Origin: Desulfobaccales bacterium
Lineage (GTDB): Bacteria; Desulfobacterota; Desulfobaccia; Desulfobaccales; 0-14-0-80-60-11
DNA: 64,000 nucleotides
Assembly: GCA_049696835.1 (NCBI GenBank)
Contig: JBAVUP010000161.1
Location: 8,726-72,725 of the forward strand
Direction: 5' to 3'
The first letter of the stretch is position 1. Each line of letters begins with the position of its first letter. Below the pieces are notes generated by a model, which made no database searches, had not been told where the DNA came from, and saw nothing but the letters and a program-made list of their open reading frames with translations. Below, in pieces: positions 123-62,218 of this stretch. A program made the translations under genes and the position numbers.

Positions 123-3100
123 TTACCCTAGCCCCAGCGCCGCGTCCACCTGGGCCCCCAGTTGTTCCAGGGTGAAGCCCGCCACATAAATGCCTTGCTT
201 GGGACAGGTGGCCATGCACGAACCGCAGCCCTTACACAGGACTTGATTCACTTCCACGGTCTTCTTCACATGGCCGTCTTTGACGTATTCCAACAGACTG
301 ATGGCGTGAAAGGGGCAGGCATCCACGCAAAAGGCGCAGCCGTCGCAATTTTCGTCCACGGGTCGGGAAATAATGGCCTCAAGCTCCAGGGTGTCCCGGG
401 ACAGGATAGTGCCGGCCCGGGAGGCGCAGGCCAGGGCCTCGGCAATCGATTCCTCGATGGGCTTGGGATAATGGCAGAGGCCCGCCATGAAGATGCCCGC
501 GGTGCTGGACTCCACCGGCTTGATCTTGGCGTGGGCCTCCGAGAAGAACCCATCGGCATTGAGGTGCACCTTGTACAGATCCGCCAACGTCGCATTCTGG
601 TGGGGAATAATGGCGGTGGCCAGCGTCAGCAGGTCCACCTCCAATGCCATCGGCAGCAGCAGGTCCTGATCCTCGAAGGTGATGACCATCTTGTCCCCGG
701 CCGCTTGCACCTGGGGGGGATTATCCACCGGGTAGCGGCAGAACCGCACCCCCTTTTCCCGCGCGGCGAGATAGAGCGTCTCCCGCTCTCCGTAGGTGCG
801 CATATCCCGGTACAGGATAGTCACCTCCATATCCGGATTCATGTTCTTCAGCCGGATGGCGTTCTCCACGGAATGGCTGCAGCACACCCGGTTGCAGTAC
901 GGCCGCTCCGGGATGCGGGAGCCCACGCATTGTATAAAGGCCACGCCCTGGGCTTGCTTCACCCGCTCGGTGCCCCGGGCCAGTTCCCGATCCAGGTCCA
1001 GGGAAAGCAACACGTTGGGATGCTGTTTGTAGAGAAATTCGCCTTCCGGCCGCAGGGGTTCGGCCCCGATGGCGATGATGACGATGCCGTGCTCGATCTC
1101 CTGGCCGGTGGACAGCTTGGATTTATAATTGCCCACCGAACCGGACACATCGTCCACCATGGCCAGATAATGGACGGTGATCTTGGGATGCTTCTCCACA
1201 TTGTCGATCATGGCGTCCACCAGCACCTGCACCGGTTCGTTCCGCCAGGTGCTGTGGAGCTTACGGGCGTTCCCCCCCAGGTGGTCCAGCCGCTCCACCA
1301 GATGGACTTCGAAACCCTGATCCGCCAGGGCCATGGCGCTGGTCATGCCCGCCATGCCGCCGCCGACCACCAGAGCCCGCTTGTTCACCGGCACCGACAG
1401 GTATTTCAGGGGCTCCAGCAATCTGGCCTTGGCTATGCCCATGCGGATCAGGTCCTGGCATTTTCCCGTGGCCTTATCCGGCTCCTGCTGGTGCACCCAG
1501 GTGCACTGGTTGCGGATGTTGGTCATCTCGAACAGGTATTTGTTCAGGCCGGCTTCCCGGAGCATGTTCTGGAACATGGCCCCGTGGGTCGTGGGGCTGC
1601 AGGCCGCCACCACCACCCGGTTCAGCCGGTGCTCCTTGATCATCTGCACCATCTGGTTCTGGGAGTCCTGGGAACAGGTGAACAGGTTATCCTGCACGTA
1701 TTCCACGTGGGGGAGGGTGCGGGTGTTTTCCACGATGGCCGGGATGTCGGCCACGCCGGCGATATTCAGGCCGCAATGGCAGATGAACACCCCCACCCGG
1801 GGTTCTTCCGCCGAAACCTCTCTTTCCGGCGGAAACGACCTTTCCCGCTGCATGGTTCCCCGGGACGCGGCCAGATCCCGGGCGGCGGCGGCGGCGGCGG
1901 CGCTTCCTTCCACGACCGAATCCGGAATATCCTTGGGCCCGGTAAACGCGCCGCACGCATAGATCCCCGGCTGGGAGGTGGCCACCGGCGTGCAGCAATT
2001 GGTCTTCACAAAGTTGTTGTCGGAAATCTCTATGCGCATGGTCTCGGCCAGGGCCGCGTTTTCCTTAGGGCTCGTCAGGCCGATGGACAGGACCACCAGG
2101 TCAAAGGCTTCGGTTCGGATGCCGTTGGTTTCGTCCACATAGGACACTTCCAGATTGTGGGTGCGGGGGTTCTGGATCACCCGGGAAACCATGGCCCGCA
2201 CGTATCTGATGTTATGGGCCTCTTTGGCCTGCTGATAGTAACGCTCAAAGCCCTTGCCGTGCGCCCTGAGATCAATGAAGAAAATCGTGGGCTGGATTTT
2301 GGCGTCATGCTCCTGGGCGATGATGGCCTGCTTGGTGGCGTACATGCAGCACACCGATGAGCAGTAGGGCCGGCCCTGCGCGGCATCCCGGGAGCCGACG
2401 CACTGGATCCAGGCGATCTTTTCCGGCTCCGTCCCGTCGGAGGGGCGCTGGATATGCGCATGGGTCGGGCCGCTGGCGGACAAGATTCGTTCGAATTCCA
2501 GGGACGTCATCACATTGGGATAGCGCCCGTAGCCGTATTCTCCCTTCAACCGGGCATCGAACGGCTGGAACCCCGGCGCCAGGATCACGGCCCCCACCTC
2601 CAGATGCACGACCTTATCCGTCTGGGAAAAATCCACCGCCTGGGAAGGACAGAACTTCTCGCAGGCCCGGCATTTGCCTTTGCGAAAATAAATGCATTGC
2701 TCCTGGTCGATGGCATATTTCAACGGCACCGCCTGGGGGTAGAGGACATAGGCGGCTTTGCGGGCATTGAGCCCCTGGTTGAACTCATCGGGCACCTTTT
2801 TGGGGCATTTTTCCGCGCATATGCCGCAGGCGATACACTTGCTCGCATCGATGAACCGGGCCCGCTGCAGCACCTCGACCGTATAATTGCCTTCCTGGCC
2901 AGAGATGCCCGCCACCTCCGCCGGCGCTAAAATCTCGATATTTAAATGCCGCCCCACCTCCACCAGCTTCGGGGCCAGGGTACACATGGAACAGTCATTG
3001 GTGGGAAAGGTCTTGTCCAACATCGGCATGACGCCGCCGATGGCGGGTTTTTTCTCCACCAGGTACACGTAAAAGCCGCTTTCCGCTAAATCCAGGGCCG

Positions 3101-3196: not shown

Positions 3197-4048
3197 TTAC
3201 GCTAAGCCCTTCATCTTTAATAACGGCATGGGGTCCACCAGGTGCTGCGCCAGCCACTTGGAGGCCTGGGGCAGCCCCAGGGCCAGGCCGATCAATTCGG
3301 TGAAGTAAAACACCGGCAAATAATAGTCCTTGCCGAACTTCTGGGCGATCCGCTCCTGGGAGAGATCCAGGTTGGCCTGGCACATCTGGCAGGAGACCAC
3401 GAAACAATCGGCCTTGGCGATCAGGGCCTGCTCATAGAGGCCCTGCACGAGGGTGTCGATGATGTCCGGGCGGGCCAAGGCCAGGCCCGCGCCGCAACAG
3501 TCGGTCTTGAAAGACCATTCCCGGGGCGTGGCGCCCAACACCTCGAGCAAACGCTCCATGTGTTGCGGGTTTTCATAATCCTTCCTGCCGGTCACAGCCG
3601 GCGGCCGGGACACCAGGCAGCCATAGTAGCTTACCGCCTGGAGATTATGGAGCGGCATGACCACCTTGGCGGCGATGTTCTCCAGGAAGTCAGGTTGCGT
3701 CAGATAGTCCAACAGATCCCAAATTTTGATCTCGCCTTTATAGTCAATGCCCAACTCCTCCCCGGCCGGGCCCTGCAAGGCGTGCTCCGCTGTCTTGAGC
3801 CGGTTGAAGCACAGGGCGCAGGGCGCCACCACATCACGTCCGGCTTGCTCCGCCAACGCCAGGTTGCGGGCCGGCAGACTCAAGGCGAGCCGGTGGTTGA
3901 GGCTGTGCGCCGAACTGGCCCCACAACAGTTCCAATCGAAGAGCTCCACCAGTTCCACGTCCAACAGGGGAGCAACGGCGGCGATGGACGCGCGGTAGTC
4001 CACCGCAGTGCCTTCCAGCGAGCAGCCCGGATAGTAGGTCACTTTCAT
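3197..4048 (-). CDS. hdrB: HdrB-like CCG-domain subunit
   Basis: N-terminus is MKVTYYPGCSLEGTA. Duplicated Cys-rich CCG-type segments are present (NCCGASS, DCCGAG). The gene is tightly packed between the hdrC-like and hdrA-like genes. Confidence 0.85.
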   Translation of the reverse strand: MKVTYYPGCSLEGTAVDYRASIAAVAPLLDVELVELFDWNCCGASSAHSLNHRLALSLPARNLALAEQAGRDVVAPCALCFNRLKTAEHALQGPAGEELGIDYKGEIKIWDLLDYLTQPDFLENIAAKVVMPLHNLQAVSYYGCLVSRPPAVTGRKDYENPQHMERLLEVLGATPREWSFKTDCCGAGLALARPDIIDTLVQGLYEQALIAKADCFVVSCQMCQANLDLSQERIAQKFGKDYYLPVFYFTELIGLALGLPQASKWLAQHLVDPMPLLKMKGLA

Positions 4049-4051
4049 AAG

Positions 4052-4630
4052 CTAAAAATCAGCCTCCCGGAATAGTTTGGCGATCTCCGCCTTGCCTCGC
4101 AACGCCGACGGGCCCAACAGACGCACCCGCCCCCGCTTAAACAGTTTCCACCCCAAGCGCATATTCTGCTTCAATTCCGCCAGGTTCCATTGCCGCCGCA
4201 GGCGAAACAGCGTAAACCGCCGCAGGAGCAGGCTCTCCGGCAGGCGGCCCCCCGCGTCCCGGATGCCCTGCAGGAAAAAGCGGTGGAAGGCCGCCACCTC
4301 GGGATCGGGGATGGATCGGCCCCGTTTCACCGCTTCCTCTTTGAGCCAGTCCATGGTACCGGCAATGTCGATGCCGTTGGGACAGCGGGTGGTACAGGTC
4401 TGGCAGCCGGCACAGACCCAGATGGTGCGCGAGTCCAACACCAGGTCCTCCTGGCCCAACAGCGCCAAACGGATGACATGGTGCGGCAACAGATCCATGG
4501 CAAAGGTCAGGGGGCAGCCTCCGGAACATTTCCGGCATTGAAAGCAGGTAGTTACCGTGAGGCCGGCTCGCGCCAGGACGCCCGACATGGTCTCCTGGGG
4601 CTTCAGAGGTTGATTAGCTGTGTTTTCCAT
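4052..4630 (-). CDS. hdrC: HdrC-like 2x[4Fe-4S] ferredoxin subunit
   Basis: Two Cys clusters are present: CFQCRKCSGGCP and CAGCQTCTTRCP. There is a 3-nt gap to hdrB. Confidence 0.8.
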   Translation of the reverse strand: MENTANQPLKPQETMSGVLARAGLTVTTCFQCRKCSGGCPLTFAMDLLPHHVIRLALLGQEDLVLDSRTIWVCAGCQTCTTRCPNGIDIAGTMDWLKEEAVKRGRSIPDPEVAAFHRFFLQGIRDAGGRLPESLLLRRFTLFRLRRQWNLAELKQNMRLGWKLFKRGRVRLLGPSALRGKAEIAKLFREADF

Positions 4631-4892: not shown

Positions 4893-4944
4893 AGGGCTCA
4901 AGTCCATGAGAAATTAACAAAACCTTGAACCTTGAACAAAAATC

Positions 4945-5020
4945 TGGTAGGCGGAACAGGGCTCGAACCTGTGACCCCCGGCTTGTAAGGCCGATGCTCT
5001 CCCAGCTGAGCTATCCGCCC
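4945..5020 (-). tRNA. tRNA-Val (TAC)
   Basis: Reverse complement is GGGCGGATAGCTCAGCTGGGAGAGCATCGGCCTTACAAGCCGGGGGTCACAGGTTCGAGCCCTGTTCCGCCTACCA. The anticodon loop is CTTACAA and CCA is encoded. Pair 1-72 is a G-U wobble. Confidence 0.93.
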
Positions 5021-5066
5021 GCCCGCGTTATAGTCACCCAAGGCGCGGCTTCTGTCAAGGAGGAAA

Positions 5067-5095
5067 GTGAGCAGTGAGCTGTAAGCAGTGAACAG
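5067..5095. repeat. Heptanucleotide array (GTRAGCW-like)x4
   Basis: Sequence is gtgagca gtgagct gtaagca gtgaaca g. It is the same unit family as 26111-26167, in opposite orientation. Confidence 0.85.
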
Positions 5096-5146
5096 TTTTT
5101 GGCTATATTGGCAAGACTTGATAGTCCGTGGCAAGCTGCTCACAGT

Positions 5147-7597
5147 CTAATGCGCCTGAATCTCGGCGATGGCTGGCTCCGTCGGCACGTACACCGCTTC
5201 CGGCGGCAGCGGCGGCGCCTTGAACAGGCTATCGGGATCGTCCAGGACCAAAGCCTTTTTCAGCACTTCGTCCATGTGATCCACGGGCACCAGGTCCACC
5301 ACCTTGAGAATCCGGGCCGGGATCTCCTTGATATCCTTTACATTGTCCCGGGGGATGAGCACGGTCTTGATCTGGTGGCGGTGGGCCGCCATGATCTTTT
5401 CCTTCAGCCCCCCGATGGGCAGGACCCGCCCCCGCAGGGTGATTTCCCCAGTCATGGCCACGTCGCGATAGACCGGTATCTTCAGCAAAGCGGAGACAAT
5501 GCAAGTGGCGATGGTAATCCCGGCGGAAGGGCCATCCTTGGGAATAGCGCCCTCCGGCACGTGGACGTGGATGTCGATCCGGCGGTAAAACTCCGCCGGC
5601 AGCCCCAGGTATTCGGCCTTGGAACGCACATAGCTCAAGGCGGCCTGGGCCGACTCCTGCATGACTTCCCCGAGCTTGCCGGTGATCAGGAGTTTGCCCC
5701 GGCCGGGCAAAACCACCACCTCGGTATGGAGGAGTTCGCCCCCGAATTCGGTCCAGGCCAGACCGGTGGTGAGACCCACTTCGTCGGCCTCTTCGGTGCG
5801 GCCGAAGCGGAACCTGGGAACCCCCAGGTACTTGGGCACTATCTGGCTGGTGACCTTGACCTGGTGGTCTTTGCCCTTGGCCGCCACCTCCCGGGCTACC
5901 TTCCGGATGACGGAGGCGATTTCCCGCTCCAGGTTCCGCACCCCCGCTTCCCGGGTGTATTGCCGGACGATGGTCAGAATGGCGTTTTCCGAGAACTGGA
6001 TGTTCTCCTGGCTCAGGCCGTTGGCGGCGCACTGTTTGCGGATCAAAAATTGCTCGGCGATGTGAAGCTTCTCCACTTCGGTATAGCCGGCCAGGCGGAT
6101 GATCTCCATCCGATCCTGGAGCGGCGGCGGGATGGAATAGAGATTATTGGCCGTAGTAATGAACATCACTTCGGACAGGTCGTAGTCGACGTCCAGATAA
6201 TGATCATTGAACGCGATGTTCTGTTCCGGGTCCAGGACCTCCAGGAGGGCCGCGGACGGGTCGCCCCGAAAATCCGTGCTCATCTTGTCCACTTCATCCA
6301 GACAGAAGACTGGGTTGTTGGTCTTGGCCTTCTTGAGGGACTGCATGATCTTGCCGGGCAAGGCCCCGATGTAAGTGCGCCGGTGGCCGCGAATCTCGGC
6401 TTCGTCCCGCACGCCTCCCAAAGATAGGCGCACAAAGTTCCGGTCCAGCGCCCGGGCCACCGACTTGGCCAGGGAGGTCTTGCCCACCCCCGGCGGCCCC
6501 ACCAGACAGAGGATGGGGCCTTTCATCTTCTTCACCAGGCTCTGCACCGCCAGGTGCTCGAGGATGCGCTCCTTGGGCTTCTCCAGGCCGTAGTGGTCTT
6601 CTTCCAGGATATGCTCCGCCTCTTCCAGGTTATGCTTGTCTTTGGTCCGCTCGTACCAGGGCAGGGACAGGAGCCAGTCGATATAGTTCCGGGACACCGT
6701 GGCCTCCGCCGACATGGGGCTCATGAGCTTCAGCTTCTTCACCTCATGCTTCACCTTGCCGGTGGCTTCGGCGCTCATCTTTTTCCTACGGATGCGGCGC
6801 TCCAGTTCCTGGATTTCGCCTTTGAGATCCTCCTTTTCCCCCATCTCCTTCTGGATGGCCCGCATCTGTTCGTTGAGGTAGTACTCCCGCTGGGTCTTTT
6901 CCATCTGTTTCTTGACCCGGTTCTTGATGCGGGATTCGATCTGGAGGATTTCGTTTTCCCGGTTGACCAGGCCCACCACCTGTTCCAGGCGGCGGGTGGC
7001 GTCCAGGGTTTCCAGCAGGGCCTGCTTCTCATCCGACTTGATGGCCAGATGACCGGCGATGGTGTCCGACAGGCGTCCCGGGTCATCCACCCCCACCAGG
7101 CTCTGCATGGCCTCCTGGGGTACCTTCTTGTTCAGCTTGCTATAGGTCTCGAAGCCGCTCACCGCGGCGCGGCGCAAGGCCTCGGTCTCGGAGGTAATCT
7201 CCCAGGACTCCATGAGTTCCTCGGCCTCCACCTGGAAGAACTGGCTCATGGGCAGGAATTGGCGCGCAATGGCCCGGCCCTTGCCCTCCACCAGCACCTT
7301 GACGGTGCCGTCCGGCAGGCGCAGAAGCTGTAAGATGGCCGCCAGGGTGCCCACCCGGTGAATCTCCCCCTCCCGGGGTTCATCCTTGCGGGGGTCCTTC
7401 TGGGTGCACAGCAGGATATATTTTTCCTGCCCCATGGCGTATTCCAGGGCATGGATGGATCGCTCCCGCCCGATGAACAACGGCACCACCATGTGGGGGA
7501 AGATGACGATATCTCTGAGGGGCAACATGGGCACCGTGAGCATATGGCGTTTATCTCCTTCCCCGGTTGCGCGGATCTTGGGTAATCGGAAGATCAT
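5147..7597 (-). CDS. lon: ATP-dependent Lon protease
   Basis: Carries the [24 protein letters not shown]-domain, Walker [10 protein letters not shown] and catalytic [11 protein letters not shown]-track start 7702 would overlap clpX by about 100 nt. I prefer the ATG at 7597 (TAATG overlap with the clpX stop); the ATG at 7543 is an alternative. Confidence 0.95.
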
Positions 7598-8877
7598 TAT
7601 TGCACCGCCACGCCGGGCTTGTCCCAGGCCTCGTCCTCGGTCGTCCGAAAGGTGAGAATCGGCTCGCCCTGCTTGATGATGAAGTCCGCATTGATCAGGC
7701 AATCCTGGACATCTTTGAGAGACGGCAGTTCATACATCAGGTCGAGCATGGCCCGCTCCAGGATGGCTCTCAGACCCCGGGCCCCGGACTTGCGTTTCAG
7801 GGCTTCTTTGGCTACCGCCACCAGGGCGTCGTCGGTAAAACTCAAGTTTACCCGGTCCAGTTCCAGAAGTTTCTGATACTGCTTCACCAGGGCGTTCTTG
7901 GGTTCCCGGAGAATCCGCACCAGGGCGTCCTCATTCAGTTCGTCCAGGGTGGCGATGACCGGCAGGCGTCCCACGAACTCCGGGATGAGACCGAACTTCA
8001 GCAGATCCTGGGGATGGAGCTGGGCCAGGGTCTCACCCAGGGGCCGCTGGGCCCGGCTCTGGATGTCGGCCCCGAACCCCATGGCCTTGCGGCCGATGCG
8101 GGTCCCGATGATATCCTCCAGGCCGTTGAACGCCCCCCCGCAGATGAACAGGATATTGGTGGTGTCCACCTTGATGAACTCCTGTTGCGGGTGTTTGCGC
8201 CCCCCTTTGGGCGGGACCGAGGCCAGGGTGCCCTCGATGATTTTGAGCAGGGCCTGCTGCACCCCCTCCCCGGAGACGTCCCGGGTGATGGAGGGGCTGT
8301 CCGTCTTGCGGGCGATCTTGTCCACTTCGTCGATGTACACGATCCCCCGGGAGGCCTTCTCCACGTCGTAATCCGCCACCTGCAGAAGATTGAGGATGAT
8401 GTTTTCCACATCCTCGCCCACGTAGCCGGCCTCCGTCAGGGTGGTGGCGTCCGCAATGGTGAACGGCACGTTCAGGATTCGGGCCAGGGTCTGGGCCAGC
8501 AAGGTCTTGCCGGACCCCGTGGGGCCCACCAGCAGGATATTGCTCTTTTGGAGCTCCACCCCGTCCAGGTCCACCCCGGCGTTAATGCGCTTATAGTGGT
8601 TGTACACCGCCACCGACAGGATCTTCTTGGCCCGTTCCTGGCCGATGACGTATTCGTCGATCTGTTGTTTGATGATCGACGGCTCGGGGATGGCGAGCCT
8701 GGCATGTTTGGCGTCGTCTTTCTCGTATTCTTCCGCGATGATGTCGTTACACAACTCGATACACTCGTCGCAGATGTAGACACCGGGGCCGGCAATGAGC
8801 TTCTTCACCTCGCCCTGGCTTTTGCCGCAAAACGAACACAGCAGGTCGGCACTCTTGTCGGTACCGCGTTTACTCAT
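7597..8877 (-). CDS. clpX: ATP-dependent Clp protease ATP-binding subunit ClpX
   Basis: Has the N-terminal C4 zinc finger (CSFCGKS...CDECI), Walker A GPTGSGKT, pore loop GYVGEDV and a ClpP-docking MGF loop. The likely start is MSKRGTD at 8877; the ORF track starts at 8895. Confidence 0.95.
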
Positions 8878-56757: not shown

Positions 56758-58029
56758 ATGGCCCCGGTGCGGTTTTCCACCTTTGCAGCCTTGCGCCACC
56801 GGAATTTCCGGCTGTACTACTTCGGCCAGCTGATCTCCCTCACCGGCTCCTGGATGCAATCCATTGCCTTTAGCTGGCTGGTCCTGGTGCTCACCAATTC
56901 CGCGTTCTACCTGGGTCTGGTGGGAGCCCTCCAGACCCTGCCGGTGTTGCTCTTTTCCTTTCTGGGCGGGGTGGTGGCCGACCACACCCACAAGCTCAGG
57001 TTGCTCTTTTTAACCCAGGCCGTCCTCATGCTTCTGGCCCTGGCCCTGGGAGTGCTGGTGGATATCAAGCTGATCCAGGTCTGGATGCTGTGCGTCCTGG
57101 TCTTTCTGTCTGGTACGGCCATGGCCTTCGATATCCCGGTGCGCCAGGCCTTCATCGTGGAGCTGGTGGGTAAGCCGGACCTCCCCAACGCCATCGCCCT
57201 CAACTCGACGTTGTTCAACGCCACCCGGGTGGCGGGCCCGGCGGTGGGGGGGGTGGTCATCGCCGCGGTGGGCATGGCCAACTGCTTCTATCTCAATGCC
57301 GTCAGCTTCCTGGCGGTGCTCGTGGCCCTGGTGCTCATGCAGCTGCCCCCGACCCAGCCGGCGACCTGGACCCCCTTCGTGCGGGCCTGGAAAGAACTCC
57401 TGGATTACCTGCTGGAGCGCCGGGAACTCAAGCTGGTCCTGGTGCTCATGACCACGGTGGCGGTCCTGGCCATGCCCTATTTCGTGCTGCTGCCCATCCT
57501 GGCCCGGGATACCCTGGGGGTGGGACCCGGCGGCTTCGGGCTCCTCATGGCCACGAGCGGGGTGGGAGCCTTTGCGGGGGGCCTCACCCTGGCCCGGCGC
57601 CTGCAACATCACCCGCCCATGCCCTCGTTTCTGGCGGGCCAGGGCCTGTTTCTCCTGGGGCTGATGGGGTTGGGGCTCTGCCGCAACTATTACGCCGCCC
57701 TGGGCTTTATCTCGCTGGCCGGGTTCGGTATGGTGACCCAGCTGTCCACCGGCAACAGCCTGCTCCAGCTCAACGTGCCCGACGCCCTGCGGGGGCGCAT
57801 CATGAGCCTGTTCGGCCTGATCGTCATGGGCTTTGCGCCGTTGGGCAGCATCCTTTACGGCGGCGCAGCCCACTTCGTGGGGGCCGGCCCGGCCATCACC
57901 GGCGGCAGCTTTCTGGCGGCGTTGGTGGCGGGCTTCGTGCTCTGGAGGAACCCGGAACTGCGCCACTTCACCTTCAGCGAGCCTGAACCGCCGACGGCCG
58001 ACGCCATCCGGCCTACCATAACTCCGTAA
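56758..58029 (+). CDS. MFS transporter
   Basis: About 12 hydrophobic segments, an N-terminus FRLYYFGQLISLTGSWMQ, and a GG..AD loop. Confidence 0.88.
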   Translation: MAPVRFSTFAALRHRNFRLYYFGQLISLTGSWMQSIAFSWLVLVLTNSAFYLGLVGALQTLPVLLFSFLGGVVADHTHKLRLLFLTQAVLMLLALALGVLVDIKLIQVWMLCVLVFLSGTAMAFDIPVRQAFIVELVGKPDLPNAIALNSTLFNATRVAGPAVGGVVIAAVGMANCFYLNAVSFLAVLVALVLMQLPPTQPATWTPFVRAWKELLDYLLERRELKLVLVLMTTVAVLAMPYFVLLPILARDTLGVGPGGFGLLMATSGVGAFAGGLTLARRLQHHPPMPSFLAGQGLFLLGLMGLGLCRNYYAALGFISLAGFGMVTQLSTGNSLLQLNVPDALRGRIMSLFGLIVMGFAPLGSILYGGAAHFVGAGPAITGGSFLAALVAGFVLWRNPELRHFTFSEPEPPTADAIRPTITP

Positions 58030-58196
58030 TTTTCCCCCTTGAGCCCGGTCAGGCGGCGCTGCCCTGTGCCGTTCAGGGGAAAAATCGCGCTTCCGAACCG
58101 CCAGGTGGCTGATTTATCTCGATTATTAGCCGCCAGGCCTCGTCACCTGGCCGCTTTTCTCTCGCATGGGTGCCGCTTCTGTGACGCATTCATACC

Positions 58197-58225
58197 GTTT
58201 TCTGTTTTCTGTTTTCTGTTTTCGG
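58197..58225. repeat. Heptanucleotide array (GTTTTCT)x4
   Basis: Sequence is gttttct gttttct gttttct gttttcg g. It lies at the left edge of the low-GC island. Confidence 0.9.
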
Positions 58226-58540
58226 CTAAAAGAATATAAGATATTAATAAGTTACGTAGCAGGTTGGTTTCATTTCACAGTGAAAATGAGATAAACCTGG
58301 GGCACAGCCCGCAGCGCCCCTAAGAAAAGCCGAAATATCCTGACCGGATTGAGATCACTTGAGTTTGACTATAGAACTTGAAAGAGAGATTACCAGAAGG
58401 GAGAGGCTGGTTGGCGCACTTTCCGAGGCCTGGACTGAATCGGCGGCTAAGACCTCAGAGGGGTCCATGTCATTATCCAGATCATATCTGTACTTAATTT
58501 GAATTTTTAAGGGATTATGATTTTGGCAAGTGATGTGGCA

Positions 58541-61500
58541 TCAATCGTTTCGTTTATCGGGGCCATCATCGCCGTATTCGCGCTTACGCATTTCCAAATC
58601 TTCTTCACTCCTGCGTTGCTCGGCGGCAATTCGTCTGTCCAGGCTCAGCACATGGCTTCTTGCGAATAACTGAACACTTTCCCGCGGATCGCTAAGCCAC
58701 AGCTCAAGCTCCGTCTTCTTGCGTTTATATGCTTCCACAAATCCGAATTCTCCGGTAACCACGCCGGTCGAATCCAGGGCTGCATCTACTTCGTTTAATA
58801 GCGGGTCTTCTAATGGCAGAAGGGCCACGATCTCTTTGCAAAGGCCATTTATAAAGGTCTTTCCTTCATAATTACGCAAAATCTTAGCTACAAACTCAAG
58901 GTCAGTTCTGTCACTGCCTTTTATGAGATTTTGTAGGATGTGCTCAAACTCGGGCGGTAAATTTGGAAAGACACTTGAGAGTAACTGACCGCCGCGATAT
59001 TGGAAAAATAGCTTGTCTTCCTTAAACCAGGATCGAGCCTCTTCCACTAAATATTCCGGGATTTTCGCGAGTTGCTCATGCAGGCGGAGAAACTGGAATG
59101 GTATTGCTTTAAATCTCAGTTTGTCGCCGGTCGTTGATTTTAGTTCGAATTTCAACCTAGAGCCGAAAAAGTCAACCACCTTCGTTGGCCAAGAGGCTGC
59201 GATTGACGCCAAGACATCATCAACATGATAGTCTATCTGAGGGTGTCGGATCAAACTTGCAAGCACCTGGTCCGCCTGCTCCGAATTCAAATCCTGAAGC
59301 AGCGCCCTATTTGTTTGAGAAGCCCATAAGGCGTTCACCCACCTGGTGTCGCCCTTCTCGGTTAAGTAGTCGATAGCGGGCAGAAAAAGCCTATCAATCA
59401 ATCCACCTGCGACGTCTCCGTGGCGTGCTACGCTAGTGCTAACTGCATTAAAAATGGCATCATCATTGCCGACTTCGATTGCTGCACTCAAAGCTCGTTC
59501 AAGTAAATGCACATCGAAATTTGCAGCGAATCGCTGATACCAGATTAATTGGGGCAAATATTGGCGGATATCAATCCAATGCCGAATCTTTTCTTGTGCA
59601 ACGCCTTCTTTTGGTCCACCTTCAAGTCCACTTAACATCGCGGGCAGGAAGTTTGCAAGCCGTTCATCCAGCCGGTCGAGGTAAGTGATTACTATATGAG
59701 GCTTCGATCTTCCAAGCTCTTCCAAAAAGCGCCCAAAGCTTGGGAAAGTAGCAAGATCCTTTGACTCCGTCTGGGCGCATCGCGACAACACAGAGAGCCA
59801 TTCGTCGGCGTTCTCTTCGGTGACTTCGTCGAGAAGCTTTTTTAATTGTTGATTGCGGTACTCTTCCTCTGCCTCAAAATCGAAGCTCGCATTCTCCCAT
59901 GCCGCTGGAAAAACCGACTGAAATCCCACCAACGTCTTATAGACAACAAACTCCTGGTTACTGTTCAAAAGGTCGCGGAAAGCAAGAATTTGCTCGGTCA
60001 GGCTTTGACGGGAAATTGCGATTGTCGGATCATTCGCGGTGTCGCTAGGCATATCACGGTTCCGTCGGTATAGCCAAAGAAGGTCATGTTCAAGCTGTTG
60101 AAGGAGCTCATAGCTCTGATCGACCGCGACCTCTTTGTAAAACTCAACAATATTGGCCGTATCGTCTAATATGGTTTTTAGTAGCTCATTTGAATAATTG
60201 CCAATGTATGGCGTTGTCGTTGCAGTGGATAGTCTTTGCACAACTTCACGACGCTCAGCATCGGTTTTAGCTTCCCTGAATAAAGACTTAAGAATCTCGA
60301 TAGCGGTGGCCCGAATTTCTGTTAGCATCTCGCTTGGCACAACCGAGCCTTTGTGAATTGTGAGGGTTTTGTATGTACTTGAAGTGCCTTCTACTTCCGG
60401 TTGGAGCACTTGCCCAAGCACCTCCATTACAACAGGTTTAATGGAGGCGAGCTCTCCAATGTCTATTCTGCGGATGCGCTGCACCAATAATTGTTGAATA
60501 AGAGGACCCACCTGTTTCCAAATATTAAGGTCGTGTCTGGAGAGCTTTTCCGCGGATTGTAATAAAAATTTACGTTCCTCATCACTTTTCGCTCCTGGAA
60601 AGAGCTCACAAATGGCATTGAAAGTCGCCTCAACGGCCACTTCGTCGAGGTGACGCAAACGTAATTGATGGAGAATATCAACCGCGACACTCACGACCTG
60701 CTCAACAGTGTAGCCAGGGAGTGCACCAAACGGCGTATCAATCGGGCGCATCGGTGTCTCGCGCGCTTGTTTTATGGCCGAAACAACCGCCGAGCGGATT
60801 TCAGGATGAACGCTCTGTAAGTCGTCATAATTCGGAAGTACATATGTACCGAACCTTTCCAGCAAATCATGTCGCTCATTATTGTCTTTACAACTCGCAA
60901 GCGGTGTCAATGCGCCTTGATCAAATAGCTCCTTCCCGCTAGATAGACGTTCAAAATCGGTGGCAACTTTCTGGAATTCGTAGCCAGCAGGCAATAGATA
61001 ATCATGCATTATTTTCTTCATGCGTTGTTCAATGCCCTGCATCAATCTGCCACCGAAACCCTTTAGCTTTGGCTTTTTATAAATGGTGTCGTGCGCCATC
61101 TCTGACCACGCATGATTTAACGTTGTCTGAACTTGGACTTCACACCACATACCACGAAAGCGGGCATACTCGGGAAGGGCAACACGTTGATCGTTAAGGC
61201 GCACTACATAGTTGGTCGAAATGAAGAGCTCGGTGGCGCTACTCGTATCCGGACTTGGGTGGTGAATTTTAGTCCGGTCCCAATCAACTTCGAAGTTATC
61301 TCTAACAATGCCAGATGACAAGAACCGGGAAACGTCGGAATTAGTGTAAAAAACAAGACGGCATCCGGCCAGGTCCTTAATAACTTCTTCAATATTTTCA
61401 CTTTCAAGGGCACCGGCTTCTTCAAGTTTTTCCTTAAGAGACTCTGGGTCCTTGGCGCGGTGCTTTATCTGCTGCAATCGGAGGTTGGGGTGCGCCTCTA

Positions 61501-61585
61501 TCGCTGCCGTGAGCACTGCCCCTATAGTTTCGGCAAGGCCAGCGTAATCGCTGCGCATCCTTTTTTCATACATCTCGAAGTTCAT
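58541..61585 (-). CDS. RelA/SpoT-homolog (RSH) nucleotidyltransferase-domain protein with ~800-aa helical-repeat C-terminus
   Basis: The N-terminal ~180 aa follow the RelA_SpoT synthetase pattern: HRAKDPESLKEKL, IKDLAGCRLVFY, YVVRL, WCEVQVQTTLNHAWSEMAHDTIYKK. The rest is Leu/Glu-rich and helical, with no P-loop seen. RBS GGGGGAG lies 5 nt upstream. G+C is visibly far below that of the neighbours. Confidence 0.85.
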   Translation of the reverse strand: MNFEMYEKRMRSDYAGLAETIGAVLTAAIEAHPNLRLQQIKHRAKDPESLKEKLEEAGALESENIEEVIKDLAGCRLVFYTNSDVSRFLSSGIVRDNFEVDWDRTKIHHPSPDTSSATELFISTNYVVRLNDQRVALPEYARFRGMWCEVQVQTTLNHAWSEMAHDTIYKKPKLKGFGGRLMQGIEQRMKKIMHDYLLPAGYEFQKVATDFERLSSGKELFDQGALTPLASCKDNNERHDLLERFGTYVLPNYDDLQSVHPEIRSAVVSAIKQARETPMRPIDTPFGALPGYTVEQVVSVAVDILHQLRLRHLDEVAVEATFNAICELFPGAKSDEERKFLLQSAEKLSRHDLNIWKQVGPLIQQLLVQRIRRIDIGELASIKPVVMEVLGQVLQPEVEGTSSTYKTLTIHKGSVVPSEMLTEIRATAIEILKSLFREAKTDAERREVVQRLSTATTTPYIGNYSNELLKTILDDTANIVEFYKEVAVDQSYELLQQLEHDLLWLYRRNRDMPSDTANDPTIAISRQSLTEQILAFRDLLNSNQEFVVYKTLVGFQSVFPAAWENASFDFEAEEEYRNQQLKKLLDEVTEENADEWLSVLSRCAQTESKDLATFPSFGRFLEELGRSKPHIVITYLDRLDERLANFLPAMLSGLEGGPKEGVAQEKIRHWIDIRQYLPQLIWYQRFAANFDVHLLERALSAAIEVGNDDAIFNAVSTSVARHGDVAGGLIDRLFLPAIDYLTEKGDTRWVNALWASQTNRALLQDLNSEQADQVLASLIRHPQIDYHVDDVLASIAASWPTKVVDFFGSRLKFELKSTTGDKLRFKAIPFQFLRLHEQLAKIPEYLVEEARSWFKEDKLFFQYRGGQLLSSVFPNLPPEFEHILQNLIKGSDRTDLEFVAKILRNYEGKTFINGLCKEIVALLPLEDPLLNEVDAALDSTGVVTGEFGFVEAYKRKKTELELWLSDPRESVQLFARSHVLSLDRRIAAEQRRSEEDLEMRKREYGDDGPDKRND

Positions 61586-61702
61586 AAAGACTCCCCCCGG
61601 CGCATTACGGCTATCTCAGTATTAAACAGCTTATGTCGAAAAATAGAGAACAGGCTGGGATGATTACTCGTCTACAAAAATGCCATTATCTGAAGACAAG
61701 CA

Positions 61703-61882
61703 CGTAGGGCGGGAAAGCGTAGCGCATCCCGCCTTTAGCATCATTAGTTTCCGGCGGCGTTCCAGCAGCGTGACCGTGAAAAAGAACATGCCGCCAGGAA
61801 CAAAGGCGCGAATATATTGTAGCATAAATCAGGCCTGACCTGATTGCCGAAGGCGGGATGCGCTACGCTTTCCCGCCCTACG
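61703..61882. repeat. MITE-like element: perfect 33-bp terminal inverted repeats around a 114-bp spacer
   Basis: cGTAGGGCGGGAAAGCGTAGCGCATCCCGCCTT (61703-61735) is the exact reverse complement of AAGGCGGGATGCGCTACGCTTTCCCGCCCTACg (61850-61882). Confidence 0.85.
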
Positions 61883-62078
61883 CCCATATCTTTTGCTGCA
61901 AGATTACTACTATACATCAACGGTTTAAGCCCCAAGAAAAAATAGATGATATATTTTCATAAGCCGCCTGATGGGGAAAAAGCCTGGGCAGAAGGCAGGT
62001 GGTCATGTTGGCGCAAAGGCGAATTCCCCGACGCCCCCTCCTTATCAGAGAATATCTCATTTTCCTCCCCCAAAAACC

Positions 62079-62107
62079 TTGTGAAGCCCAGCCATTTTTG
62101 TTATAAA
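62079..62107 (+). promoter_or_regulatory. Sigma70-type promoter for rpsB-tsf
   Basis: TTGTGA-N17-TATAAA. It predicts a GC-rich leader of about 105 nt before rpsB. Confidence 0.45.
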
Positions 62108-62218
62108 ATTATGATTTGAATTACACTACTCACGCGCCGTCAGGGCGGGCTGGTGCCGACCGGATGGGTCGGTGGCCCCGCCGGCGGCGGCGCGGCGGAC
62201 CAACCAGGAGGAAGGTTT

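Follow-up and report, generated by a model that had tools for sequence, protein, structure and literature searches.

A horizontally acquired RelA/SpoT-solenoid fusion gene as a probable member of a modular toxin-plus-sensor family

We analysed a stretch of 64,000 nucleotides from the Desulfobaccales bacterium assembly GCA_049696835.1 (contig JBAVUP010000161.1), which is referred to as the window. It contains an intact and horizontally acquired gene whose product joins an N-terminal RelA/SpoT homolog (RSH) synthetase domain to a large C-terminal alpha-solenoid. The gene is a probable member of a large, unnamed and likely anti-phage family of modular toxin-plus-sensor systems, in which the same solenoid is also encoded as a stand-alone protein, immediately after a gene for a PIN-type or other effector of about 280-350 aa. 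We regard it as probable that the window gene itself forms a conflict module that is complete in itself and spreads by horizontal transfer, and that its product most likely serves in anti-phage abortive infection. A preliminary description of the window, made from its letters, had proposed a CapRel-like fused toxin on an island bounded by repeats; this idea turned out to be largely right in spirit, and wrong on the kinship with CapRel and on the bounding repeats.

The gene is located on the minus strand at 58541..61585, starts with ATG and is a complete coding sequence (CDS) of 1014 aa. The motifs HRAKDPESLKEKL, DLAGCRLVFY and EVQVQTTLNHAWSEMAHDTIYKK are all found in its open reading frame (ORF). 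As the preliminary description had it, this is a single gene, with the ORF of an MFS-type transporter (end at 58029) to its left and rpsB (S2) to its right. The gene and the parts of its product are as follows.

58541..61585, minus strand: RSH plus alpha-solenoid CDS, 1014 aa (from the ORF, full-length alignment to homologs and substitution rates)
61061..61585, minus strand: pyrophosphokinase domain of the small-alarmone-synthetase type, residues 1-175 (from Pfam, profile, fold and invariant residues)
60881..61060, minus strand: linker with two conserved helices and the invariant motif LLPAGYEFQ, residues 176-235 (from model helices and conservation)
58691..60880, minus strand: HEAT/ARM-like alpha-solenoid, proposed sensor or regulatory module, residues 236-965 (from AlphaFold2, Foldseek and homology)
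58541..58690, minus strand: long, charged and conserved C-terminal helix (...LDRRIAAEQRRSEEDLEMRKREYG...), residues 966-1014, with the stop codon (from model helix and conservation)

The RelA/SpoT head

Judged by sequence profiles and a predicted structure, the N-terminal part of the protein is a genuine RelA_SpoT synthetase domain with a small-alarmone-synthetase fold. With 42.3 bits over residues 42-172, the Pfam family RelA_SpoT (PF04607) exceeded its gathering cut-off (27). This was the sole Pfam match of the window protein, in which Pfam found no HD, TGS, ACT or P-loop/NTPase domain. The strongest library match of the enzyme domain was phrog_9640 (68.9 bits), a phage protein family of unknown function. 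A profile built from 31 N-termini of the family and searched against PDB sequences recovered RelP/YwaC (6FGK, E 3e-12), S. aureus RelP (2e-11) and RelQ/YjbM (1e-4), whereas CapRel (7ZTB) was matched with E 0.04 and 16.7 bits. An AlphaFold2 model of residues 1-230 reached a predicted local distance difference test (pLDDT) score of 77, with most of the core above 85. Foldseek searches with this model placed RelQ (5dec/5ded) and RelP (6fgj/6ex0) on top, with E values of about 1e-7 and template-modeling (TM) scores of 0.55-0.70 (5dec: E 1e-7, TM 0.57/0.67; 6fgj: TM 0.60/0.69). CapRel followed at rank 38 (E 3.5e-5) after all RelP/RelQ chains, and FaRel2 was found with E 1e-3. The earlier call of a RelA_SpoT domain without an accompanying HD domain is supported by these matches. 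The proposed kinship with CapRel is not, as the N-terminal domain is nearer to RelP/RelQ than to CapRel by both sequence profile and predicted fold, and is followed by a solenoid of about 780 aa.

In alignments of 46 and 31 sequences, R43, K45, D71, R76, E149, Q151, T154 and H158 are invariant within the family, and the RSH catalytic motifs RxKxxxS, DxxGxR (with the Mg2+-binding Asp) and ExQxxT (with the catalytic Glu) are kept. The active site therefore appears intact. The G-loop, which stacks the acceptor base, differs within the family: it reads F121-I-S-T-N125 in the clade of the window protein and Y-R-x-x-H in distant family members, the canonical form being G-Y-R-S-x-H. The Phe of the F-I-S-T-N loop could still stack an acceptor base. 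Because of this divergence, the acceptor cannot be read from the sequence.

The solenoid and its interchangeable partners

The full-length AlphaFold2 model (mean pLDDT 85.6, predicted TM score 0.63) is all-alpha after the linker helices, up to a terminal helix at residues 969-1004. The linker helices themselves span residues 179-195 and 201-222 in the model, with P199, A200 and G201 being invariant. In Foldseek searches of the PDB, the solenoid matched SF3B1, importin-beta, CAND1 and karyopherins with probability 1.0 and low TM scores. The C-terminal region of about 780 residues is thereby predicted to be a HEAT/ARM-type alpha-solenoid at the level of the fold class, with no specific relative. 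The preliminary description had recognized about 800 helical residues without a P-loop in this region, which agrees with the model and with the absence of any Pfam domain. No family in Pfam, NCBIfam, PADLOC or PHROG covered the solenoid, and a PDB sequence search with it returned nothing meaningful. Within the terminal helix, L982, E994 and E998 do not vary in the family, and conservation reaches 90% or more at residues 986-992 and 1000-1002. Mean pairwise identity amounts to 52% in both the enzyme domain and the linker, 34-36% in the solenoid and 47% in the C-terminal helix.

A tblastn search against plasmids returned two matches that were confined to the solenoid. In Legionella adelaidensis and Pseudanabaena galeata, a 'hypothetical protein' of about 800 aa aligned to residues 249-1011 of the window protein, terminal helix included (29% identity and E 6e-103 by BLASTP for the Legionella protein). 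In both cases a PIN_12/DUF4935 protein of about 340 aa (89.5 bits in Legionella, 53.7 bits in Pseudanabaena) ends 3 bp before the start of the solenoid gene. The terminal helix is conserved in these stand-alone solenoids that pair with PIN proteins as well. A 1021-aa protein encoded downstream in the Pseudanabaena locus was considered as a paralog and rejected as unrelated. Further stand-alone homologs come from Bacteroidota, Ca. Sedimenticola and a number of Legionella species, L. pneumophila among them. In three further contexts an upstream gene of 262-321 aa overlaps the solenoid gene by 1-4 bp, and in a fourth, at a contig end, a partial upstream ORF stops just before it. The elements with stand-alone solenoids carry integrase, AlpA, Rep or conjugation genes.

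The upstream proteins of four of these loci (L083, L084, L085 and L087) are mutually homologous and keep the acidic residues expected for a PIN active site. On IMG/VR contigs and in an independent complete genome, the upstream proteins are alike only in their C-terminal segment of about 90 aa (RRILGYxxWxDP...). The head of the partner in one of these (L092) is a second PIN-like type. The partners in two others (L093:5087-5929 and L095:8001-8837) share an unassigned N-terminal head of about 170 aa (GFEDFFIELAKERWG...GDHKCDGY...FQCYG) with 22 homologs; its motif looks like that of a restriction-endonuclease fold, a resemblance confirmed by no tool. A distant homolog of this partner, P0330, is annotated as PF20275. 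PDB sequence searches with the non-PIN partner heads gave nothing meaningful.

A hidden Markov model built from the stand-alone solenoids alone recovered the window protein with E 2.6e-183. At E <= 1e-3 the solenoid profile matched 1,740 cluster representatives (50% identity), of which 927 remained at E <= 1e-30. The best 150 solenoid representatives fall into two length classes of about 800 and 1000 aa. The RSH head is present in 47 of 48 long solenoid proteins and absent from 120 of 121 of those of about 800 aa. The window protein has both marks of this solenoid superfamily, namely the collinear solenoid of about 780 aa and the charged C-terminal helix. These findings show that the solenoid is a constant, separable module, while the enzymatic head is interchangeable. 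Since the solenoid is shared and the partner heads differ, the effector is swappable, and a swappable enzyme domain is typical of conflict and defence systems. The earlier notion of an enzyme and a large sensor in one polypeptide is strengthened by this, as the separable solenoid pairs with PIN-type and other effectors in mobile two-gene operons. The literature searches returned no account of either an RSH-solenoid fusion or a PIN-solenoid operon.

One of the split systems is located on a phage-like contig from IMG/VR, others on integrative and conjugative elements or integrase islands and on plasmids. The former (L091) carries the PIN-solenoid pair at 4930-8331, and by eye its ORFs 1388-3076 and 3788-4210 are terminase-like and HNH-like, which suggests that the pair is carried by a phage or prophage. 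PADLOC returned no match for the split PIN and solenoid proteins except a weak one to OloA (Olokun; E 3e-7, residues 401-667) in the stand-alone solenoid of Pseudanabaena (L084:7821-10226); the other tested solenoids were without it. On a plasmid of Aulosira laxa (L090:4682-8302), a 1206-aa protein with an N-terminal match to AAA_16 (STAND-type) ATPases is weakly similar to the solenoid over its C-terminal ~400 aa (tblastn E 9e-9, 21.6% identity); its neighbour is a 1223-aa helicase-like protein. This may reflect a distant link of the solenoid to STAND-type sensors or a generic similarity between repeats.

The interchangeable heads also bear on the possibility that the window protein is a non-toxic accessory synthetase of (p)ppGpp or related alarmones. 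The solenoid would then couple synthesis to a cellular cue, such as the status of the ribosome or another protein complex, in a new 'long' RSH for stress adaptation. Such a role would fit a catalytic domain that is nearest to housekeeping-type RelP/RelQ, the canonical guanine-binding loop Y-R-x-x-H kept in distant members, purifying selection over the full length (see below) and the position of several loci within ordinary metabolic or housekeeping neighbourhoods. Nevertheless, we consider it quite unlikely: pairing of the same solenoid with PIN nucleases and unrelated heads would be senseless for alarmone signalling specifically, there is no partner hydrolase by which the signal could be reset, the distribution is sporadic, driven by horizontal transfer and accompanied by a G+C offset, and some copies are tied to plasmids or defence islands. 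If this explanation were true, the protein would be a long RSH of a new class, one that takes its input through a HEAT-type domain, and of relevance to stringent-response biology.

Horizontal spread and boundaries of the acquired unit

More than 1,145 proteins matched the window protein, and the best 120 were all about 1000 aa long and collinear with it from end to end at 48-84% identity. An exact copy of the window protein is not on record in public assemblies. With one genome taken per species, 73 loci with the fused form were obtained. Their genomes are sporadically distributed over five or more phyla and include Desulfobacterales, Alpha-, Beta- and Gammaproteobacteria, Nitrospirota and Acidobacteriota. 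In 60 homologous loci the G+C content of the gene minus that of its +/-8-kb flanks had a median of -4.5 points and was below -3 points in 62%. This offset, the sporadic taxonomy, copies on plasmids and neighbours that differ from locus to locus all bear out the horizontal acquisition that the preliminary description had deduced from composition.

Domain-wise Nei-Gojobori ratios of nonsynonymous to synonymous substitution rates (dN/dS) were 0.16-0.30; against the closest relatives, every domain had values of 0.16-0.26. Such low values in every domain indicate purifying selection and hence an intact and functional gene. In some pairs among the window, L081, L080, L005 and L006, dS differed sharply by domain (window versus L081: 0.24 in the N-terminal domain and 0.47 in the solenoid; L081 versus L080: 0.66 and 0.24, respectively). 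This indicates recombination between family members and points to a reshuffling of head and solenoid among them.

For a partner gene, all ORFs within +/-10 kb were clustered at 61 loci, and the 145 nearest neighbours were scanned with Pfam and PADLOC. Across the 61 loci no conserved neighbour or small adjacent ORF of the fused form was found, and no Pfam or PADLOC family occurred in more than 3 of the 145 neighbours. On these grounds we rejected the idea that the fused form has an antitoxin or partner gene, in line with the earlier statement that an adjacent antitoxin ORF is missing. The same neighbourhoods speak to a further explanation, in which the protein is an interbacterial or secreted toxin comparable to Tas1, which synthesises (pp)pApp, with the solenoid as delivery or adaptor domain. 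RSH-fold toxins do serve in warfare by the type VI secretion system, at least in the case of Tas1 as cited in PMC7229694, and a Tle1-like domain of this secretion system was found in 1 of the 145 neighbours. In the 61 loci, however, there was no association with PAAR, Rhs, VgrG, signal peptides or immunity genes, and a conserved downstream immunity ORF is missing. Moreover, the toxin domain is N-terminal here, whereas it is C-terminal in polymorphic toxins. We therefore regard a secreted toxin as highly improbable.

Known defence genes adjoin the fused form in two of six Pfam-annotated contexts and in one plasmid island, but not in the remaining four contexts (see below). At one locus (L078) AbiEi/AbiEii are encoded directly upstream of the fused gene, and at another (L081) a type I restriction-modification cluster lies beside an 83%-identical homolog. 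Full-length fused copies are present on a conjugative Sphingobium plasmid (L089, pYGP1) and on the Rhizobium rhizogenes plasmid pC6.5d (L088). On the latter, a 1310-aa variant (L088:6653-10585) consists of RelA_SpoT, the solenoid and an extra C-terminal Gamma_PGA_hydro domain (PF05908). Its island further includes a 1108-aa SIR2_2 protein, a metallophosphoesterase, a caspase-family protein, VapC/Phd (VapBC), an integrase and insertion sequence elements. About one in four of the fused-form loci has a recombinase or group II intron no more than 10 kb away.

This mobility raises the question whether the fusion is a toxin-antitoxin or addiction module, in which the solenoid acts as a mere antitoxin, within the molecule or, in the split form, between molecules, and stabilises plasmids and islands with no sensing of phages. 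The occurrence of the family on plasmids and integrative elements, VapBC and RelE modules nearby and the layout of the split operons, with the toxin-like PIN gene first, its partner second and overlapping stop and start codons, would all be expected of such a module. We still consider it unlikely. An antitoxin of about 800 aa would be far above the typical size of type II antitoxins, differential decay of the antitoxin is impossible within a fused polypeptide, and many fused copies, that in the window included, stand alone among chromosomal housekeeping genes, where there is no mobile element that they could stabilise. Many toxin-antitoxin systems are themselves defence systems, so that this explanation overlaps with that of an abortive-infection protein.

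In several loci unrelated to one another, cassettes for SOS mutagenesis lie a few kb or less from the fused gene. That on the Sphingobium plasmid is imuA-imuB-dnaE2, and those in L008, L017 and L037 comprise a Y-family polymerase together with SRAP and a LexA/UmuD-like protein; their proximity may perhaps reflect just common carriage on mobile elements. In the metagenome-assembled genome (MAG) Yes49-14 (L003/L006), a 74%-identical homolog has a MamI (magnetosome) family protein 2 kb off and a 1781-aa UvrA-like protein downstream.

In the window, the gene is embedded in a stretch of low G+C content. In 500-nt windows, G+C was 0.456-0.498 over 58000-61999 and 0.60-0.69 in both flanks; it amounts to 47.7% for the gene against 61.1% for the remaining window, which confirms the drop that the preliminary description had estimated by eye against flanks of about 60%. 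The features around the gene are as follows.

58030..62079, no strand: whole low-G+C stretch from the MFS gene to the rpsB leader (from composition profile and computed G+C)
61586..61700, minus strand: upstream leader of about 115 nt with a TATAAT-like box and a GGGGGAG Shine-Dalgarno sequence (from DNA identity with homologous loci and conserved boxes)
58299..58320, minus strand: terminator-like G+C hairpin about 220 nt past the stop codon (7-bp stem with 6 G-C pairs, weak T tail)
61693..61892, no strand: repetitive extragenic palindromic (REP)-like inverted-repeat pair around a short transposase-like ORF fragment (48-nt arms, 88% complementary)

DNA identity to L081 (86.6%) and L005 breaks off at window positions 61700/61697, and only 58524-61700 is common to the closest homologous loci. 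As DNA similarity is limited to this range, the transferred unit consists of the gene and its leader of about 115 nt. The TATAAT-like box and the GGGGGAG ribosome-binding site of the leader are conserved in the alignment with homologous loci, and an Rfam scan (E <= 1) of the leader returned no regulatory RNA. Neither a recombinase ORF nor a flanking direct repeat was found within 58030-62079.

The preliminary description had seen the island as bounded by REP/MITE-like repeats on both sides. The pair on the right is real: its 48-nt arms (61693-61740 and 61845-61892) lie 104 nt apart and have a perfect 30-nt core, GGCGGGATGCGCTACGCTTTCCCGCCCTAC, which has no further occurrence in the window beyond this pair. 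The same REP-like element is also present, over 40 nt, in the related Deltaproteobacteria MAG Yes49-14 (L006:4993-5032). The left 'repeat' is the terminator-like hairpin, which is unlike the right-hand repeat, and no repeat links the two ends of the low-G+C stretch. Matching boundary repeats and a target-site duplication were rejected accordingly, and the REP-like pair adjoins the acquired unit and is not part of the system. The pair encloses the start of a short ORF on the minus strand (61664-61825, MLQYIRAFVPGGMFFFTVTLLERRRKL), whose product looks like the N-terminal part of a REP-associated tyrosine transposase, although Pfam gave no match for it. Outside the acquired unit, a sub-threshold match to t44 RNA (RF00127) was found at window positions 62111-62204 on the plus strand (30.4 bits, gathering score 44; E 0.0013). 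It lies directly upstream of rpsB, which is the expected place of an S2-autoregulated rpsB leader.

Proposed mechanism and comparison with known systems

So far, the separable solenoid and its changing heads suggest a general function beyond the window. The solenoid may well be the common sensor scaffold of a large unnamed bacterial immune family with plug-in effectors. These would be either a fused RSH domain or separate PIN_12, other PIN-like or unassigned-domain proteins that dock via the adaptor of about 90 aa, and the window gene would be a single-chain version that, upon sensing a conserved cue of infection, would flood the cell with an alarmone-type nucleotide or block tRNA and so abort the infection. 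We infer that sensing and regulation reside in the solenoid, whereas the head is the toxic effector. In this model the solenoid would keep the effector inactive until it binds a trigger, which could be a protein of a phage or mobile element or a cellular state caused by infection; the effector would then be released or activated. The shared segment of about 90 aa would serve as the docking site of the separate effectors. In the fused version, the active effector would move pyrophosphate from ATP onto an acceptor. A nucleotide acceptor, leading to (pp)pGpp or (pp)pApp and at the same time to a drain of ATP and depletion of NTPs, is slightly favoured because the head is RelP/RelQ-like, as opposed to a tRNA-modifying toxic small alarmone synthetase (toxSAS), and because part of the family has a canonical G-loop. 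The CCA sequence at the 3' end of tRNAs would be the alternative acceptor. Either route would result in growth arrest and thereby abort the infection. A gene with its own promoter and leader that needs no partner gene would also explain how a single gene could land between housekeeping genes, here the MFS gene and rpsB.

Several observations weigh against an anti-phage function. The F-I-S-T-N form of the G-loop in the window clade departs from the canonical one, making the substrate uncertain. In PADLOC-DB 2.0, the window protein matched a single candidate model, PDC-S33, weakly (E 1.7e-6) and over residues 37-161, which belong to the enzyme domain alone. The solenoid is without domain-wide positive selection (omega 0.16-0.30), and it is collinear across phyla and less variable than many sensors of phage proteins. 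Among the 145 nearest neighbours no defence family occurs more than twice, and in four of the six contexts annotated with Pfam the fused form has housekeeping or metabolic neighbours only.

If the proposed function is true, the family would be a widespread addition to the bacterial immune repertoire that numbers no fewer than 1,700 clusters (50% identity) and is found in Proteobacteria, Desulfobacterota, Nitrospirota, Acidobacteriota, Cyanobacteria, Legionella and Bacteroidota. Through the shared scaffold with interchangeable effectors, what was one odd gene becomes part of a widespread family of systems that can be tested. The natural swapping of RSH, PIN and a third head would provide an experimental handle, as the trigger of one scaffold could be read through different effectors. 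As no partner gene is needed, the window gene is cheap to test under any of the explanations discussed.

By its domain, catalytic residues and predicted fold, the window protein is assigned to the RSH superfamily and, within it, to the synthetase-only class. It was rejected as a strict small alarmone synthetase, since it has 1014 aa and an extra domain of about 780 aa, compared to about 200-400 aa in these single-domain enzymes. It was also rejected as a long RSH (Rel/RelA/SpoT), given that HD, TGS and ACT domains are missing and that the C-terminus is a HEAT/ARM solenoid. Assignment to the bicistronic or tricistronic toxSAS modules (FaRel, FaRel2, PhRel, PhRel2) failed as no neighbour family is conserved across the 61 loci. 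RelP and RelQ (6FGK, 6EWZ, 5DEC) are the best profile and fold matches to residues 1-195; they share the motifs RxKxxxS, DxxGxR and ExQxxT with the window protein and likewise lack a hydrolase. However, they are stand-alone, vertically inherited Firmicute tetramers of about 210 aa, whereas the window protein is a solenoid fusion of 1014 aa spread horizontally in Gram-negative phyla, and the G-Y-R-S-x-H of their G-loop is replaced by F-I-S-T-N in the window clade.

Among defence systems, neither the fused nor the split form matched a known PADLOC system over the full length. In PANGU, the toxSAS GRel makes pppGpp to abort infection (10.64898/2026.04.06.716658). The type I system, with a nucleoid-associated protein (NAP) as sensor and the GRel toxSAS Pag1B, resembles the proposed mechanism in being anti-phage, in using an RSH effector that makes pppGpp and drains NTPs, and in having alternative effectors (10.64898/2026.04.06.716658). 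PANGU is bicistronic, though, and its effector has an acidic, DNA-mimicking C-terminus, whereas the candidate sensor of the window protein is fused and a conserved partner is missing. RelA_SpoT as the N-terminal head of an immune-receptor-like protein with C-terminal repeats is also known from fungal NOD-like receptors (NLRs), some of which have such an effector domain (PMC4986451). These receptors contain a central NACHT/NB-ARC NTPase and ANK, TPR or WD40 repeats, whereas the window protein has no NTPase domain.

DSR2 consists of an N-terminal NADase and a C-terminal HEAT-repeat domain that binds the phage tail tube (PMC11263360). It is similarly a single protein of about 1000 aa with an N-terminal enzyme and a large HEAT-repeat-like C-terminus. 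This likeness is one of fold class and architecture only: the effector of DSR2 is a SIR2 NADase and that of the window protein an RSH pyrophosphokinase, neither Pfam nor PADLOC returned a DSR2 or SIR2 match, and DSR2 is not in the top 50 Foldseek PDB matches. The DUF4935/PIN_12 proteins (PF16289), which are the partner effectors of stand-alone solenoids in a sister branch of the solenoid superfamily, have been described as VapC-like PIN proteins of unknown function that are 'usually mono-cistronic' (PMC5499597). No paper was found that links them to a solenoid gene of about 800 aa and so to the RSH fusion; the family proposed here would, if true, give them a first functional context.

The closest parallel in logic is CapRel, a fused toxSAS that senses phage proteins (PMC9712102). 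Like the window protein, CapRel (CapRel-SJ46, PDB 7ZTB) is a single polypeptide with an N-terminal RSH toxin domain and a C-terminal regulatory part and has no antitoxin gene; both are mobile and accessory, and by analogy the window protein may also be autoinhibited until a trigger binds. Membership in the CapRel subfamily was rejected on sequence profile, fold rank, C-terminal domain and length. CapRel has about 340-375 aa in total with a small C-terminal antitoxin or sensor domain of about 100 aa, in place of which the window protein carries its unrelated alpha-solenoid of about 780 aa, and CapRel pyrophosphorylates the CCA end of tRNA, while no acceptor is readable from the window protein. 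If the proposed function is true, the fusion would thus be a second, structurally unrelated way of equipping an RSH toxin with a built-in sensor.

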